A stretch of DNA of 23,986 nucleotides from a virus (lineage: Duplodnaviria; Heunggongvirae; Uroviricota; Caudoviricetes), in the IMG/VR virus record IMGVR_UViG_2529292907_000023, positions 1 to 23,986 of that record; one strand, given 5' to 3'. The position numbers and the translations under genes are program-made. Of the stretch, positions 14,775 through 23,986 are shown piece by piece. Every line of letters starts with the position of its first letter. Within the stretch, counting starts at the first letter, position 1. The notes below the pieces were generated by a model, which made no database searches, was not told the DNA's origin, and saw only the letters and a program-made list of their open reading frames with translations.

Positions 14775-15481
14775 CACCGCTGCCAACCAATAACCTGAAA
14801 TAACCCCATTTTCGGGTGATACCAGCGAGTCCCTCGCGGTTCTGCTTCCTCCATAACCCGATAAAAAGCAGCCATAAACGGTTCCACAGCAACAATTGCG
14901 CGACGTGACAACAATCCGTCCGGCGTCATGAACTCATGGGTGTCTGTAGGAATCTGATAGGCGTTCACCAGATTGCGGCATTTATCATCTGACAAACCGG
15001 TTTTTGCTTTCAGTTGGCGATATCCGGCATAGCCCTCACGAATAGTGCCCTTTTTAATTTGCTCGACTGTTTCAGCAACGTGGCTGACTTTTTCTTCCAC
15101 CTGAGTGATACGTTTCTGTTGGCGAACGGCTTCAAGAGCCATCGCGGCAACCATTTCGATTTCGCTCATTGGCTTACGGATCTGTTCTTCCAGTTCGCGC
15201 CAGCGATCTACCAGGCGAGCTGTGAATTCAGGACAGAGCTGTGCGACGACAATGATGCTGTCGCGCTTACCTCGTTCACCTTCGAATACATACGCGCTAG
15301 AAAATCGGCGAGGCCCAAGTGATTGTTTATTCTCAATTTCCACAGTCTGTGGAAATTGGATGATTCCCTTTTTAGCCAGTGTTTCAATAGTTCTCTTAAC
15401 ACTATCTGGTCGGCTTCCCACCAGCTCTGCGATCTCAACGCTGGTCATGGATGCTTTGCCGTTAAAAATTGCGGTGTTCAT
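14774..15481 (-). CDS. Phage regulatory protein, probable Rha/antirepressor-like N-terminal DNA-binding domain
   Basis: 235 aa; AGGAGA RBS; N-terminal MTSVEIAELVGSRPDSVKRTIETLAKKGII and later DSIIVVAQLCPEFTARLVDRW resemble the Rha/ORF6N-type motif; second gene of the rightward early operon. Confidence 0.45.
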   Translation of the reverse strand: MNTAIFNGKASMTSVEIAELVGSRPDSVKRTIETLAKKGIIQFPQTVEIENKQSLGPRRFSSAYVFEGERGKRDSIIVVAQLCPEFTARLVDRWRELEEQIRKPMSEIEMVAAMALEAVRQQKRITQVEEKVSHVAETVEQIKKGTIREGYAGYRQLKAKTGLSDDKCRNLVNAYQIPTDTHEFMTPDGLLSRRAIVAVEPFMAAFYRVMEEAEPRGTRWYHPKMGLFQVIGWQR

Positions 15482-15705
15482 TGTTGGTCTCCTGTGGGCT
15501 TGTCATCTTCTGTATTCGCTAGACTTGGGTGTGTATATGGAATGCTCGGATCCAGATGACAAAGAATGGCAACATCCTCCGGAACACCTCGCGTTTTCCA
15601 CTTTCCAACACCTTGACTGCCACGAGGCCTTCCTTTCTTTGGGAACCTGCGACCAATAGCGGCATTGGTTTTAAATTGAATTTTTAATATTTCATAAAGG
15701 GTCAT
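15478..15705 (-). CDS. Hypothetical protein (75 aa) in the cro position (first ORF of the early-right operon)
   Basis: Divergent from cI across a 110-bp operator region; basic region GRRFPKKGRPRGSQG; weak RBS; no HTH I can recognise, so a Cro identity is not supported by sequence. Confidence 0.4.
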   Translation of the reverse strand: MTLYEILKIQFKTNAAIGRRFPKKGRPRGSQGVGKWKTRGVPEDVAILCHLDPSIPYTHPSLANTEDDKPTGDQQ

Positions 15706-15816
15706 TCTTTAGTCTCACACCAGATACTTTGTTATCCAACGATGTTAACCACAGGAACCCAAAGTATCAAGAAATTCTGTTACTTTAGTATCAACAGCCA
15801 TGAGAGGAGAAGAAAA
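15706..15816. promoter_or_regulatory. oR-like divergent promoter/operator region between cI and the early-right operon
   Basis: Three copies of a GTATCA-core motif: GATACTTTG (15723-15731, inverted), CAAAGTATCAAG (15760-15771), TTAGTATCAAC (15784-15795); the first two form an inverted repeat 28 bp apart. Confidence 0.55.
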
Positions 15817-16473
15817 ATGAAGTCTTTAGGTGAACGTCTCATCAACGCACGGCAAAAAGCTGGGTTAACACAAGATGCGTTGGCTAAAAAAGCTGGGGTC
15901 ACCAGAGTTGCAATCAGTAAAGCCGAGCAAGGCCTTACAAAAAGTTTCAACGGTGACACCCTTTTTAAAGTTGCAGCTGCACTGCGGTGTTCACCGCAGT
16001 GGCTTCAGAACGGAGATGAAAAAGATAAGCATTGGGAAAATAATGTTAAGAGCTGCCCACAGAGAGACACAGCACACTCTTACCCTGTAATTAACTGGGT
16101 TCAGGCAGGATTATTCGCAACTTCTGGTGATGACTACAACATGTATGATCAGGATAATTGGAGGCATTCTGTAAAATACGCTGGTGAGAGGGGGTTCTGG
16201 CTGGAAGTGCACGGAGACTCAATGACTTCGCCCGTAGGAATAACATTTCCTGAAGGAATGTCGATCCTTGTCAACCCAGATAAAGAAGTTTTTTCAGGGT
16301 GTTACGTCATCGCCAGAAAAAAATCTACCAATGAAGCAACATTCAAAAAATATATTTCTGACATGGGAAAGGCGTTTCTAAAGCCCCTTAATCCACAATA
16401 TCCAATCATAGAAATGGACAATGATTGCGAAATAGTAGGTGTTGTGGTTGATGCCAGGTGGGATATTTTCTGA
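15817..16473 (+). CDS. cI: CI-type prophage repressor (XRE HTH N-terminus, LexA-like S24 autopeptidase C-terminus)
   Basis: ATG 15817 with GAGAGGAGAAG RBS; HTH (LTQDALAKKAGVTRVAISKAEQG); Ala-Gly cleavage-site candidate (VQAGLF); catalytic Ser in GDSM and downstream Lys (IARKK). Confidence 0.85.
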   Translation: MKSLGERLINARQKAGLTQDALAKKAGVTRVAISKAEQGLTKSFNGDTLFKVAAALRCSPQWLQNGDEKDKHWENNVKSCPQRDTAHSYPVINWVQAGLFATSGDDYNMYDQDNWRHSVKYAGERGFWLEVHGDSMTSPVGITFPEGMSILVNPDKEVFSGCYVIARKKSTNEATFKKYISDMGKAFLKPLNPQYPIIEMDNDCEIVGVVVDARWDIF

Positions 16474-16576
16474 CCAGACACAAAACACAAAAAGAAACCA
16501 AAGTATCAAAAATCACTTGCCACACCTTGATACCTTAGTTACCATAAAACAAAGTTCGTAACTGAGGTATCATCTC
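16474..16576. promoter_or_regulatory. oL-like operator cluster downstream of cI
   Basis: Three more GTATCA-core sites (CAAAGTATCAAA about 16498-16509, TTGATACC about 16527-16534 inverted, GGTATCA about 16565-16571); the first repeats the oR site nearly exactly. Confidence 0.45.
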
Positions 16577-16993
16577 ATGATCAATAAAGCTACAACTCTT
16601 GACTGTCTCGAAGAACTGAAAAACCTCGGCAGCCTCATTACACTAATAGCAAAAGCAACACCTGATGCTACGCTCTCTAGCGATATAGAGTCATGCGCAG
16701 GACTGGCATGGGATATGACAAATAGCATATCCAGAAAGCTATCGTCAGCAATGCTTTTACAGAACAAAAATTCTGCAATCAACAACCGTCTTCGCACCCA
16801 ACGCGAAGCCTGCGGCTTAACAACCGCCGAACTCGCCAGGCTGCTCGATCTCGATGAAGAAATTATCATCCAGTGGGAGAGCGGAGAGTATGAACCAACT
16901 ATCAGTATGCTTATCCCACTGGCAAATATTCTTGGCTGCGATGCGATGTGGCTGTTAACTGGCGAAACGGCAGCAAAGGATATCTGCGCATGA
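16577..16993 (+). CDS. XRE-family HTH protein (138 aa) with C-terminal HTH and N-terminal domain of unknown function
   Basis: C-terminal INNRLRTQREACGLTTAELARLLDLDEEIIIQWESGEYEPTISMLIPLANILGCDAMWLLTGE is a classic XRE HTH; the N-terminal ~60 aa are unrecognised; AT-rich. Confidence 0.6.
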   Translation: MINKATTLDCLEELKNLGSLITLIAKATPDATLSSDIESCAGLAWDMTNSISRKLSSAMLLQNKNSAINNRLRTQREACGLTTAELARLLDLDEEIIIQWESGEYEPTISMLIPLANILGCDAMWLLTGETAAKDICA

Positions 16994-17232
16994 AAAACTG
17001 TAATGCTTACCATATTTGTCTCATTGGTGAATTGCTTGATTTCATACAAAAAAGCACTGCGCGCAATAATAAAAATATAACATATGGTGATCTGGTAATA
17101 ATTTCAGAGGATATAAAGAGCATCGCTCTTAAATTCAAGAGCGACGCGAGTATTGATGACGCTATTTACGCTTATCTTGCGAAAATAATTGACGGATCCA
17201 AAATCCAGCCTCTGGATGAACCTCGTCAGTGA
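16990..17232 (+). CDS. Hypothetical protein (80 aa), translationally coupled to the upstream HTH gene
   Basis: ATGA start/stop overlap at 16990-16993; AAAGGA RBS-like sequence upstream; AT-rich; no recognisable motif. Confidence 0.5.
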   Translation: MKNCNAYHICLIGELLDFIQKSTARNNKNITYGDLVIISEDIKSIALKFKSDASIDDAIYAYLAKIIDGSKIQPLDEPRQ

Positions 17233-17389
17233 AAAACTCCTTTGATGAAGATGAGAACTGCTTCATAAACTTTACTTTATCTTCAGGTGAAACTACCTGA
17301 CGAATTAATGCGGAGATAGCAACTTTGTGCCAAATTAATTCTTTTTTGAGTTCTGAAATCTCTTTTTCGAGTTGCTCTGCGTTAATCAT
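17162..17389 (-). CDS. Hypothetical protein (75 aa), convergent with and 3'-overlapping the preceding ORF
   Basis: Very strong SD (GGAGGATAAATG) at the minus-strand start 17389; coiled-coil-like N-terminus (EQLEKEISELKKEL). Confidence 0.6.
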   Translation of the reverse strand: MINAEQLEKEISELKKELIWHKVAISALIRQVVSPEDKVKFMKQFSSSSKEFFTDEVHPEAGFWIRQLFSQDKRK

Positions 17390-17568
17390 TTATCCTCCAT
17401 TGAGAGCTGAATTGAAAATGGGGACCAACACGCGGCTACGTGTGGTCGTGCGCCGGACACGGATAAGCATCCGGTAACTGATTATCAATCATTGCGGAAA
17501 CAGTCTCAATATGAAAACACTTCTGAGACTCGCTATATAGCAGAACATATAAGTCAGCTGAGGAAGCC

Positions 17569-17934
17569 ATGAAAAAGTTCGAAAACATAACTGTTCTCCA
17601 TGTTGATGACTTTGATTATACAAACCCGGAACTTCTCCCGGAGGTTGTAAAGGCAATAGATGTTGCCGATATAGTGATTAGAGAAAAGAGAATTGTCAAA
17701 AACAGGCTCGCATGCACTTCAGGAGCAATGACAGAAACAACCTCACAGCAAGATAATTACGAAGGCATTTGTCTGGAGCCTGATTCATTTGCGGTAAATG
17801 TTTATCATTTATTGCATGCAACACAGGTATTACATATGTCCAGTAATCACGAAACGAAAACACTCGGCAGCGAAATTCTGAGTTTTGCATGTGAGTATAC
17901 AAAAGCTGCTGCCGAAAAAGAATTAGCGCAATAA
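17569..17934 (+). CDS. Hypothetical protein (121 aa), AT-rich orphan gene
   Basis: GAGGAAG RBS; about 38% GC versus about 50% for neighbouring phage genes; no recognisable motif. Confidence 0.6.
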   Translation: MKKFENITVLHVDDFDYTNPELLPEVVKAIDVADIVIREKRIVKNRLACTSGAMTETTSQQDNYEGICLEPDSFAVNVYHLLHATQVLHMSSNHETKTLGSEILSFACEYTKAAAEKELAQ

Positions 17935-18012
17935 CAACAAATATGCCCTGAACGTTTATTGCGGTTTTATCGCCGGGGATTGTTACAACCTTAATCCACA
18001 GGAGGCTTTATT

Positions 18013-18126
18013 GTGACTTTTATAAAGAATATGGCATCACACAAGACCGCCTGCCTTATTGCACAATACGGTGAAAATTACATGCATATTGCCTGCTTAT
18101 TTCTGCGTAAAGCATACGGGAGATAA
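18013..18126 (+). CDS. Small ORF (37 aa, GTG start) with strong SD; possible leader peptide or small protein
   Basis: GGAGG then 7 nt then GTG; its stop (TAA 18124-18126) lies 2 nt before the ATG of the next gene. Confidence 0.35.
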   Translation: MTFIKNMASHKTACLIAQYGENYMHIACLFLRKAYGR

Positions 18127-18128
18127 TA

Positions 18129-18317
18129 ATGCATCAGAAAACAGCAGAACACGAACAAACCAGAATATTGCTGACCATCAAAAACGGGAAAGTAATATTC
18201 ATTCGCCATGTTCATGACGATGAACATGTAGGAACTCTTTCAACATTCCTGTTTATTGCAGAAAGGGCAGGATATGACGTTATTGCACCAGCAGATGAAG
18301 ATGAAGATGAGGAATAA
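18129..18317 (+). CDS. Hypothetical small protein (62 aa) with acidic C-terminal tail
   Basis: GGGAGA RBS; C-terminus PADEDEDEE. Confidence 0.55.
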   Translation: MHQKTAEHEQTRILLTIKNGKVIFIRHVHDDEHVGTLSTFLFIAERAGYDVIAPADEDEDEE

Positions 18318-18322
18318 ATATC

Positions 18323-18904
18323 ATGCAATACGATGAATTCCAGGCTGAAGCAACAGCCAATGGTATACGAACTGGCAGTATGACGATTGATTATCACGAC
18401 GCCATACGTCGTCTGGATGCCGGAGAATTCGATACTCCTAATGTGCGAGGTTTACGTATCCTTCAGTGTCTGGCGCAAGCCGACGAAGCAGGATTACTGG
18501 GTAAACTTCCGGTTGAGATGAAGGTTGCTCAGTGGCGATGGTTGTATGTGACGACATTCATCAACGAAGAAGAAGACAAGAACGGCACAATTGATATCCT
18601 GAATGAACACGGAACAACTGAACACGCCGTGGTATATAACGGGATGTATGGGTTTATGACGATATATCCCGGCCCCATTCGATTTGCCTTACAACAGTAT
18701 ATTGAATGGAATTTAATTCAAAAATACGGCGAAGCTGAAGGAATGGGAAGAGCGCTGTTTCTTTATCAGAAAATGCTCACTACTTCCCCTGATAAAGGTT
18801 TCATTCTTTCAGATATGGGTCGAGAAGGGCTTGAAATCCTTCTGGATGAAATTATTAACGAAATGAATACTCATGGCATGCAATCCGAAACAGATATTAA
18901 GTAA
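18323..18904 (+). CDS. Hypothetical protein (193 aa)
   Basis: ATG 5 nt after the upstream stop with GAGGA RBS; no recognisable motif. Confidence 0.6.
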   Translation: MQYDEFQAEATANGIRTGSMTIDYHDAIRRLDAGEFDTPNVRGLRILQCLAQADEAGLLGKLPVEMKVAQWRWLYVTTFINEEEDKNGTIDILNEHGTTEHAVVYNGMYGFMTIYPGPIRFALQQYIEWNLIQKYGEAEGMGRALFLYQKMLTTSPDKGFILSDMGREGLEILLDEIINEMNTHGMQSETDIK

Positions 18905-22673: not shown

Positions 22674-23986
22674 ATGGATAAAGTCAAATATCCAACAGGC
22701 GTCGAAAACCACGGCGGCACATTACGCATCTGGTTTAATTTTAAAGGTAAACGTGTCAGGGAAAATCTTGGTGTCCCTGACACTGCCAAGAACAGGAAGA
22801 TCGCCGGGGAACTGCGGACATCAGTATGTTTTGCCATCCGCACAGGAAGCTTTGATTATGCTGCACAGTTCCCTGACTCCCCCAACCTTCAGGCTTTTGG
22901 GGTAAGTAAAAAGAAATTACGGTGAAGGAACTTGAAGAAAAGTGGCTGGATCTGAAACGAATGGAAATCTCTGCAAATGCATTCAATCGCTATGAATCCG
23001 TTGCAAGAACGATGGTTCCGAAAATTGGAGGCAGTAGACTGGTGTCATCGGTAACCAAAGAGGAATTGCTGTATATCAGGAAAGATTTGCTGACCGGGTA
23101 TCAGAATTCAACGAAAAACAAAGCAGCAGCAAAAGGACGGAGCGTCGTTACTGTAAATTATTACATGACGACAATCGCTGGAATGTTTCAGTTTGCTGCA
23201 GATCACGGTTACTTAGAAGCAAATCCCTTCCAGGGAATTAAGCCTCTTAAAAGAGCCAGGGCAGAGCCAGATCCGCTAACTCGTGACGAATTTATTCGCC
23301 TGATAGATGCTTGCCGACATCAGCAGACGAAAAACCTGTGGTCATTGGCTGTGTACACAGGAATGCGTCACGGTGAACTGGTCTCCCTGGCCTGGGAAGA
23401 TATCGATCTGAAGGCAGGAACAATTACCATCAGGCGCAATTATACGAAACTTGGTGAGTTCACTCTACCGAAAACTGAAGCAAGCACAAACAGGGTTGTG
23501 CACCTTATCCAGCCCGCTATCAGTGTCCTGAAAAATCAGGCTGAAATGACAAGACTGGGTAAGCAGTACAACATCAAGGTGCAACTACGTGAATATAGAC
23601 GTTCAGTGAACCATGAATGTACTTTCGTGTTTAACCCTCAAGTGGTTAGAAAAAGCGAACAGGTAGGTTTTGTCTACAAAGTCGATTCTGTAGGTGACTC
23701 ATGGGAAACAGCCATTAAGCGTGCAGGGATCAGGCATCGAAAGGCATACCAGTCACGACACACTTATGCGTGCTGGTCATTATCTGCCGGAGCAAACCCA
23801 AGCTTCATTGCCAGCCAGATGGGCCATGCAAGTGCCCAGATGGTATTCAATGTATACGGAGCATGGATGACTGACAGCAATGCAGAACAGATCGCAATGC
23901 TGAATCAGAAGCTGACAGATTATGTCCCAATGATGCCCCATAGTCACCAAAGTGACACCAGAGGCTTATTAAAATCAGTAAGTTAA
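22674..23986 (+). pseudogene. int: Phage tyrosine integrase interrupted by a -1 frameshift in an A-run (arm-binding domain 22674-22925; core and catalytic domains 22922-23986)
   Basis: N-terminal ORF carries an arm-binding-type motif (KYPTGVENHGGTLRIWFNFKGKRVRE); the second ORF carries the catalytic core (R…HTYACWSLSAGANPSFIASQMGHASAQMVFNVY). The frames switch at GTAAGTAAAAAGAAATTACGG (about 22902-22922); a -1 shift at the AAA-AAG codons reads through as ...VSKKEITVKELEEKW... Confidence 0.75.

Follow-up and report, generated by a model that had tools for sequence, protein, structure and literature searches.

A helix-turn-helix gene in the predicted early-left operon of a phiP27-like Escherichia coli prophage, and a separate, optional two-gene cassette beside it

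The DNA analysed here (hereafter the window, the whole stretch of 23,986 nucleotides that forms positions 1 to 23,986 of IMG/VR record IMGVR_UViG_2529292907_000023) is a phiP27-like lambdoid prophage of Escherichia coli, which shares 94.5% identity with phage phiP27 across 15417-17995 and near-identical copies of which adjoin yecN/cmoA in strains such as ZH063. We examined the three open reading frames (ORFs) that lie downstream of its cI-type repressor gene: one encoding a 138-amino-acid (aa) protein with a helix-turn-helix (HTH) domain of the XRE type, followed by two small genes, orf80 and orf75 (Table 1). A first-pass annotation, made from the sequence alone, had treated these genes as an immunity-linked accessory module with a possible role in superinfection exclusion or defence, placed where phage lambda carries rexAB. 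The three ORFs, the operator-like cluster in front of them and the ATGA overlap between the orf80 start codon (ATG at 16990) and the TGA stop codon of the 138-aa gene were all present as described, and all three ORFs look coding. On balance, however, we read the region as two things that had been merged, a core HTH gene of the early-left (PL) operon and a separate, optional insert of two genes.

Plus-strand genes run unbroken from cI, which the Prokaryotic Genome Annotation Pipeline (PGAP) labels 'LexA family protein' in relatives, to a tyrosine integrase gene (Phage_integrase) at 22922-23986, whilst the minus strand carries a cro-like gene (15705..15478), two Rha-family genes, replication genes and Q. 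The layout matches that of lambda, with cI and the leftward PL operon on one strand and int at the far end. The 75-aa protein encoded at the cro position had no Pfam match, its only assignment being to PHROG 4749, whose function is unknown; which protein is found there changes along with the repressor type, and other immunity types have YdaS-like or P22-Cro-like proteins.

Table 1. Coordinates of the genes, domains and predicted signals around the repressor gene; positions are those of the window.
Feature	Position	Strand	Details
OR-type operator triplet	15723-36, 15755-68, 15779-92		Between cro-like gene and cI; motif scan
Promoter-like site TTGATA-17-TAACAT	15770..15742	-	Overlaps OR-type triplet
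cI-type repressor	15817..16473	+	218 aa; Pfam HTH_3 and Peptidase_S24
OL-type operator triplet	16494-507, 16529-42, 16558-71		Between cI and 138-aa gene; motif scan
PL-like promoter TTGCCA-17-TACCAT	16517..16545	+	Predicted; consensus scan, 9/12 matches, sigma-70-like
138-aa XRE-HTH gene	16577-16993	+	ORF list; stop codon TGA at 16991-16993
N-terminal domain of 138-aa protein (aa 1-67)	16577..16777	+	Two long antiparallel helices; immunity-type-specific
Acidic XRE-fold domain (aa 68-131), short tail and stop codon	16778..16993	+	Near-invariant
Replaceable cassette, 516 bp	16966..17481	.	Homology breakpoints; mutually exclusive alleles
orf80	16990-17232	+	80 aa; phrog_23054 (unknown function); not annotated by PGAP
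12-bp palindromic hairpin	17120..17147	-	15 nt past orf75 stop, inside orf80; -19.5 kcal/mol
orf75	17389..17162	-	75 aa; phrog_20080 (unknown function); PGAP-annotated; coiled-coil-like N-terminus
Promoter-like elements upstream of orf75	TATAAT 17620-17615; TTGAGA-17-GATAAT 17509-17481	-	Conserved
phrog_6104 remnant	17588..17436	-	50 aa of 80-aa gene; truncated by cassette
L08 homologue	17569..17934	+	121 aa; next operon gene; phrog_5451

To the right of cI, the spacer before the 138-aa gene carries the signals expected of an early promoter under repressor control. Scanning with the motif GATAC-N4-GTATC (<=2 mismatches) recovered 15 copies in the window where 6.8 would be expected; six copies form the two triplets on either side of the repressor gene, and the cro-cI and post-cI spacers have 10 exact 8-mers in common (0.47 expected; 0 of 500 shuffles reached that number). 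Site 1 of the OL-type triplet lies upstream of the -35 element of the predicted PL-like promoter, site 2 extends across its spacer and -10 element and site 3 overlaps the GAGG Shine-Dalgarno sequence of the 138-aa gene, an arrangement that the promoter-like site on the cro side repeats relative to its own operators. Sigma-70-like promoter-like sites were likewise found between repressor and HTH gene in all seven of the related immunity types (scores 8-11 of 12), and in three of the seven a clear intrinsic terminator stands directly 3' of the repressor gene, one example being AACGGGCTTTGCCCG followed by T8 and then by TTGACA-17-TAATAT. The post-cI spacer is thus a predicted operator/promoter region rather than a gap within an operon, which argues that the 138-aa gene heads a repressor-controlled PL-type operon. 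It would be transcribed from a promoter embedded in three cI operators and switched on once cI leaves OL, and its probable place as the first early-left gene is that of lambda N rather than that of rexAB.

In lambda, rexAB occupy the interval from cI to OL/PL and are transcribed together with cI. Like rexAB, and like nun of HK022, the genes examined here adjoin the repressor gene on the same strand; unlike rexAB, they lie beyond an operator triplet and a promoter, so that the rexAB-equivalent position given to them earlier no longer holds, the terminators of the other immunity types also speaking against it. They also have no sequence, fold or membrane-protein similarity to rexAB. The likeness to lambda N is positional, each being the first gene past an OL/PL-type region in an operon that ends in xis and int, and does not extend to the protein, which is acidic, has an XRE fold and is without an arginine-rich motif. 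No lambda-N-like arginine-rich protein is present in the region, as had been noticed at first pass, and the search for nut sites gave one boxA-like 9-mer at chance level in the window, with none in the rightward operon. An Rfam scan of 15400-18400 (E<=1) returned a single meaningless small-RNA match. Given the acidity, the missing motif and the absence of nut evidence, an N-type antiterminator was rejected for the 138-aa protein.

Searches for relatives of the 138-aa protein returned 152 homologues, all enterobacterial, with one 230-aa form in >1000 contigs, and the family occurs in many E. coli prophages, Shiga-toxin (Stx) phages included; a scan of genome contigs with the HTH domain gave no confirmed locus. 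Family members follow one plan, a helical N-terminal domain (N-domain) of 60-90 aa and of several unrelated-looking types, then a nearly invariant HTH domain (RTQREACGLTTAELARLLDLDEEIIIQWESGEYEPTISMLIPLAN.LGCD), after which many members (216-232 aa) have a second HTH domain. The idea that the 138-aa and 80-aa genes are the two halves of a split 216-aa form was rejected, as what the longer form has in addition is another HTH domain, which bears no relation to orf80.

Across the 99 loci surveyed, 80 of which were IMG/VR contigs and the remainder the window together with annotated genomes and phages, the family gene stood directly after the repressor gene in every case, among different repressors, cro types and replication modules. 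Seven N-domain types matched seven repressor types one for one, a rule from which none of the 98 loci that could be scored departed, and cI, spacer and N-domain travelled as one block in 195 of 195 complete E. coli genomes with this cI type, whilst the C-terminal architecture and the downstream genes assorted freely. Homology at the DNA level breaks at ~16790, the boundary between N-domain and HTH domain, and again at ~16965, just before the stop codon. With a family member after the repressor at all of these loci and genomes, the 138-aa gene counts as core rather than accessory, and the description 'immunity-linked' applies to the region through the N-domain of the HTH protein only. One locus of Salmonella enterica subsp. 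houtenae (L013, 3501-4855) has two family-like HTH genes in tandem, of 196 and 211 aa, downstream of a repressor of the type found here (218 aa), indicating that the family reaches beyond E. coli and that duplication is possible.

Domain analysis of the 138-aa protein agreed with the earlier description of a C-terminal XRE HTH preceded by an unrecognised domain. Pfam HTH_3 matched aa 72-126 at 42 bits, above the gathering cut-off of 23, and together with a five-helix XRE fold this places the protein within the XRE / HTH_3 group; its first 70 aa had no Pfam match. PGAP annotates the gene, and the protein belongs to a PHROG family of unknown function (phrog_4739). An AlphaFold2 (AF2) model, with an overall predicted local distance difference test (pLDDT) score of 80, has a helical hairpin (helices 2-27 and 31-78, pLDDT about 80-88) in front of the HTH domain. 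Searching the N-domain against 1.84 billion representatives recovered only three proteins at E<=1e-10, all close relatives, the other matches being spurious long repetitive proteins. The hairpin, of which at least seven unrelated-looking types exist, would probably serve in dimerisation or partner binding.

The HTH domain aligns with P22 C2 in its operator complex at 0.8-1.1 A. It has the fold of the DNA-binding domains of P22 C2 and 434 repressor, and a charge opposite to that of these two and of 434 Cro: its net charge is -7 in the window protein and -5 to -9 across 51 distinct family proteins, compared with +1 to +7 in the aligned HTH domains of cognate repressors and +7 in the cI domain of this phage itself. 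Whole family proteins range from -4 to -19, and the isoelectric point (pI) of the 138-aa protein is 4.4. Its recognition helix starts D-E-E where P22 C2 has S-N-V, at positions that we take to contact DNA in P22 C2 and 434 repressor, and the loop after that helix reads E-Y-E-P-T-I where 434 repressor has K-T-K-R-P-R, presumably in contact with DNA. The surface through which such domains usually touch DNA is acidic in the 138-aa protein, and the inverted charge together with the D-E-E start of the helix argues against ordinary operator binding.

A precedent for an HTH protein that works on a repressor is Mor of phage TP901-1, the HTH-fold product of the first lytic gene, which has no demonstrated high-affinity DNA binding of its own and acts as an antirepressor, inactivating CI by binding the CI N-terminal domain (PMC11149083). 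The 138-aa protein resembles Mor of TP901-1 and phi13 in its HTH fold and in being encoded by the first gene of a repressor-controlled operon, lytic in the case of Mor. Mor differs in that it is a 72-aa single-domain protein, encoded at the cro position in phages of Gram-positive bacteria, whereas the 138-aa protein has an additional N-terminal hairpin, is encoded on the opposite flank of cI and occurs alongside a cro-like gene. By this analogy, which as regards function is speculation only, the reading that we tentatively favour is that the 138-aa protein may be a protein-binding switch modulator or antirepressor. The signs that point to it, all indirect, are the place of the gene behind a repressor-controlled promoter, the acidic HTH face and the immunity-specific N-domain. 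It would be made upon PL derepression and act on the immunity switch by protein contacts, with the type-specific N-domain supplying cognate recognition and the acidic HTH face docking on a basic DNA-binding surface; as with Mor, the outcome would be that derepression is reinforced once PL fires.

About equally likely, and hence no more than possible, is a classical early regulator of the Cro, CII or DicA kind: the 138-aa protein would dimerise by its hairpin, bind a conserved DNA site by its XRE HTH and repress or activate phage promoters, for instance for the establishment of lysogeny or for int/xis. The HTH_3 match and the fit to the P22 C2-operator complex are those of such a protein, forms with two HTH domains exist in the family, and an invariant HTH would suit a DNA target that is itself invariant and lies beyond the immunity region, much as lambda CII acts at a promoter outside imm434. 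The best NCBIfam match was to DicA (NF007257), over the HTH domain only, and at 44.3 bits against a curated cut-off of 101 membership of the DicA subfamily was rejected. Although phrog_4836 is labelled 'CII-like regulator' and the ASU11 protein is annotated 'putative CII repressor', these 'CII' labels rest on similarity alone (PMC9751135), and our search of the literature for a functional study of the HTH family found none. The classical reading also has to accommodate the acidic HTH domain, with acidic residues at positions presumed to contact DNA, and no conserved candidate site was found, the only notable inverted repeat, at ~17511-17539, being absent from many family loci.

Several observations weigh against the picture of a PL-operon gene with a protein-binding product. 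The promoters, operators and terminator are predictions at consensus level, a terminator after cI is absent in the immunity type of the window itself, and read-through from the cI promoter may carry transcription into the 138-aa gene in the lysogen. The loci surveyed are interrelated, 70 of the 99 being of the type found in the window, and the 1:1 pairing of N-domain and repressor could follow from adjacency alone rather than from a functional interaction, across a spacer of ~100 bp that offers no homology for recombination. As for the protein, its recognition helix keeps Q99 and its helix 1 the basic stretch RLRTQR, acidic proteins can still bind DNA, and an invariant HTH domain is hard to square with the binding of variable repressors. 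An antirepressor is also not obviously needed where a self-cleaving S24 repressor and a cro-like gene are already present, and the single-HTH 138-aa form may be a partly decayed deletion derivative of the two-HTH form of 216-232 aa.

The two small genes behaved differently from the HTH gene. We found the cassette that holds them in 54 of 5426 complete genomes of E. coli, where it comes as two sequence variants, whilst other prophages with the same cI have ~156 bp at this site, containing the 3' part of an 80-aa minus-strand phrog_6104 gene. In the locus survey orf80 and orf75 occurred together in 28 of 28 loci, with four N-domain (immunity) types, and were exclusive with the phrog_6104 allele. 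The cassette is accessory and optional, carrying two orphan genes that always co-occur, and the conserved pair is orf80 with orf75 rather than the pair of 138-aa and 80-aa genes that the first-pass annotation had proposed. The accessory character it had assigned to the whole module is retained by orf80 and orf75 and lost by the HTH gene, and the same division applies to base composition, the small ORFs being AT-rich (36.6% and 36.8% GC) and the HTH gene not (46.8%, in a window of 49.4%).

Both small ORFs are probably real genes under purifying selection, judging from a comparison of nine sequence variants from six prophage backgrounds. The non-overlapping part of orf80 had a ratio of nonsynonymous to synonymous polymorphism (pN/pS) of 0.23 in its own frame, the sole stop-free one, against 0.69-0.98 in the other five; for orf75 the ratio was 0.26, with 5, 3 and 13 variable sites at the three codon positions. 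The convergent orientation of orf75, its partial overlap with orf80 (71 nt) and its strong Shine-Dalgarno sequence had all been correctly recognised, the last being GGAGGA at 17398-17393, 3 nt ahead of the ATG (4 nt in most relatives). In the phiP27 reference (L001, NC_003356) an extra T in a T-run at the equivalent of ~17340 frameshifts orf75, which is annotated there as L09 with 59 aa. Either a mistake in the old sequence or a true pseudogene may lie behind this. Two further loci (L021 and L022) have orf75 interrupted by IS1.

Searches for related proteins returned little. Among 5.8 billion proteins clustered (five orf80 and six orf75 clusters) there were no relatives outside E. coli, neither gene product had a family match in Pfam, NCBIfam or PADLOC, and the AF2 model of orf80, a three-helix protein (pLDDT 68), had no fold match in Foldseek. 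The hairpin inside orf80 is terminator-like on the minus strand only and is conserved in the nine variants, with a weak U-tract. It is so palindromic that both strands encode IALKFKSDA (seen in P0123 and in the frameshifted P0130), and it holds the only exact lambda-boxA-like CGCTCTTAA of the window, at chance level.

These signals bear on when each gene might be expressed. Being translationally coupled to the early operon, orf80 would be expressed in lytic growth, whereas orf75, on the opposite strand and with promoter-like and terminator-like signals of its own, could possibly be expressed in the lysogen and be opposed by transcription from PL. Convergent transcription would allow this division between lysogen and lytic growth, and it is the sole part of the idea of lysogen-expressed genes that survives. 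Taken further, orf75 and orf80 might form an antagonistic pair, in which a lysogen-made orf75 product with an exclusion or regulatory function is neutralised by the PL-made orf80 product and convergent transcription enforces mutually exclusive expression. Strict co-occurrence, purifying selection on both genes, the 3' overlap with a hairpin inside orf80 and the disruption of orf75 by IS1 or frameshift in some genomes would all fit such a pair; the case is purely architectural, however, with no homology and weak promoter calls, and we consider it unlikely.

The defence function suggested initially was not supported. A superinfection-exclusion or defence module comparable to rexAB or sieB would comprise all three genes, expressed in the lysogen by co-transcription with cI. 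That no terminator separates cI from the 138-aa gene in this immunity type would permit this, the small ORFs are AT-rich, patchy and moron-like, and orf75 has its own signals directed against PL. Against this, operators and a promoter intervene and terminators follow the repressor gene in three other types, the HTH gene is universal in the family and orf80 would lie on the PL transcript. PADLOC gave generic HTH matches only, Pfam and PHROGs contained no defence families among the three proteins, the small proteins lacked fold and family matches, and no transmembrane segments were found (maximum 19-residue hydropathy <=1.67, and <=0.77 for the small proteins), leaving no candidate membrane protein; a module of this kind is accordingly improbable. 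With phage morons, which are small AT-rich genes set among core genes with a promoter and terminator of their own, the cassette does share a low GC content, patchiness and replaceability, as well as the possession of its own signals in the case of orf75. It is unlike them in that its two genes are convergent and one of the two, orf80, is coupled to the early operon.

A type II toxin-antitoxin pair, with the 138-aa protein as XRE antitoxin and the overlapping orf80 as toxin, is very improbable and was rejected on co-occurrence: the ATGA overlap and weak antitoxin matches (HipB-type 26 bits, MqsA-type 25 bits) are set against cut-offs of 62-72 bits, an HTH gene without orf80 in 71 of 99 loci, an orf80 that never occurs without orf75 and has no toxin family or fold match, and a promoter that lies under cI operators rather than being an autoregulated toxin-antitoxin promoter.

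Downstream of the cassette genes, variation within the region reaches its lowest level in the spacer at 17390-17568 (6% variable sites), RNA folding of which gave modest z-scores (-2.1 to -2.3). This spacer contains a 7-bp inverted repeat on the plus strand (AGTCTCA-N15-TGAGACT, 17511-17539), upstream of the L08 homologue and conserved in relatives, which may be bound by a protein or form a stem in RNA. The 5' end of the phrog_6104 remnant overlaps that of L08 by 20 nt and is preceded by the conserved TATAAT at 17620-17615 and by a Shine-Dalgarno sequence, GGAG, at 17599-17596. Residues 69-115 of L08 are 43% identical over 47 aa (BLASTP, E 1e-9) to an N-domain of the N2 type from the HTH family (P0068). 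One N-domain type is therefore also encoded by itself within the same operon, and in phages with both this could allow titration as in the SinI/SinR system, given that SinI likewise shares the helical hook of SinR, with the limit that the similarity of L08 is to the N2 type and not to the N1 type of the window. Further along, a 62-aa ORF (18129-18317, plus strand; phrog_340) shows a weak match to two anti-repressor families, PHROGs 4792 and 2379, over their C-terminal part.

A broader proposal, which we advance as doubtful, is that the HTH family constitutes a hitherto unrecognised third switch component in a large group of N-less lambdoid prophages of E. coli and Salmonella, an acidic protein with a repressor-like fold that PL would produce first and that would act on the cognate repressor or Cro through its N-domain, and that orf75 and orf80 separately form a lysogen-versus-lytic antagonistic pair. 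Nothing categorically new is implied; the HTH family amounts to a variant of the phage switch regulators already known, with unusual properties for an early gene in its immunity-specific N-domain and its acidic repressor-like fold. Were the 138-aa protein an ordinary DNA-binding early regulator, the finding would be routine, and the orf80/orf75 cassette matters only if a phenotype proves to exist. The prophage group includes long-tailed Stx1 and Stx2 phages, and variation in the early region of long-tailed Stx phages has been linked to toxin output (PMC11333237); modest experimental follow-up is worthwhile for that reason. If the 138-aa protein does modulate the switch, it would add an extra component to the textbook cI/Cro circuit in a very common group of E. 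coli prophages, and would represent an enterobacterial HTH fold used for protein binding rather than for operator binding.

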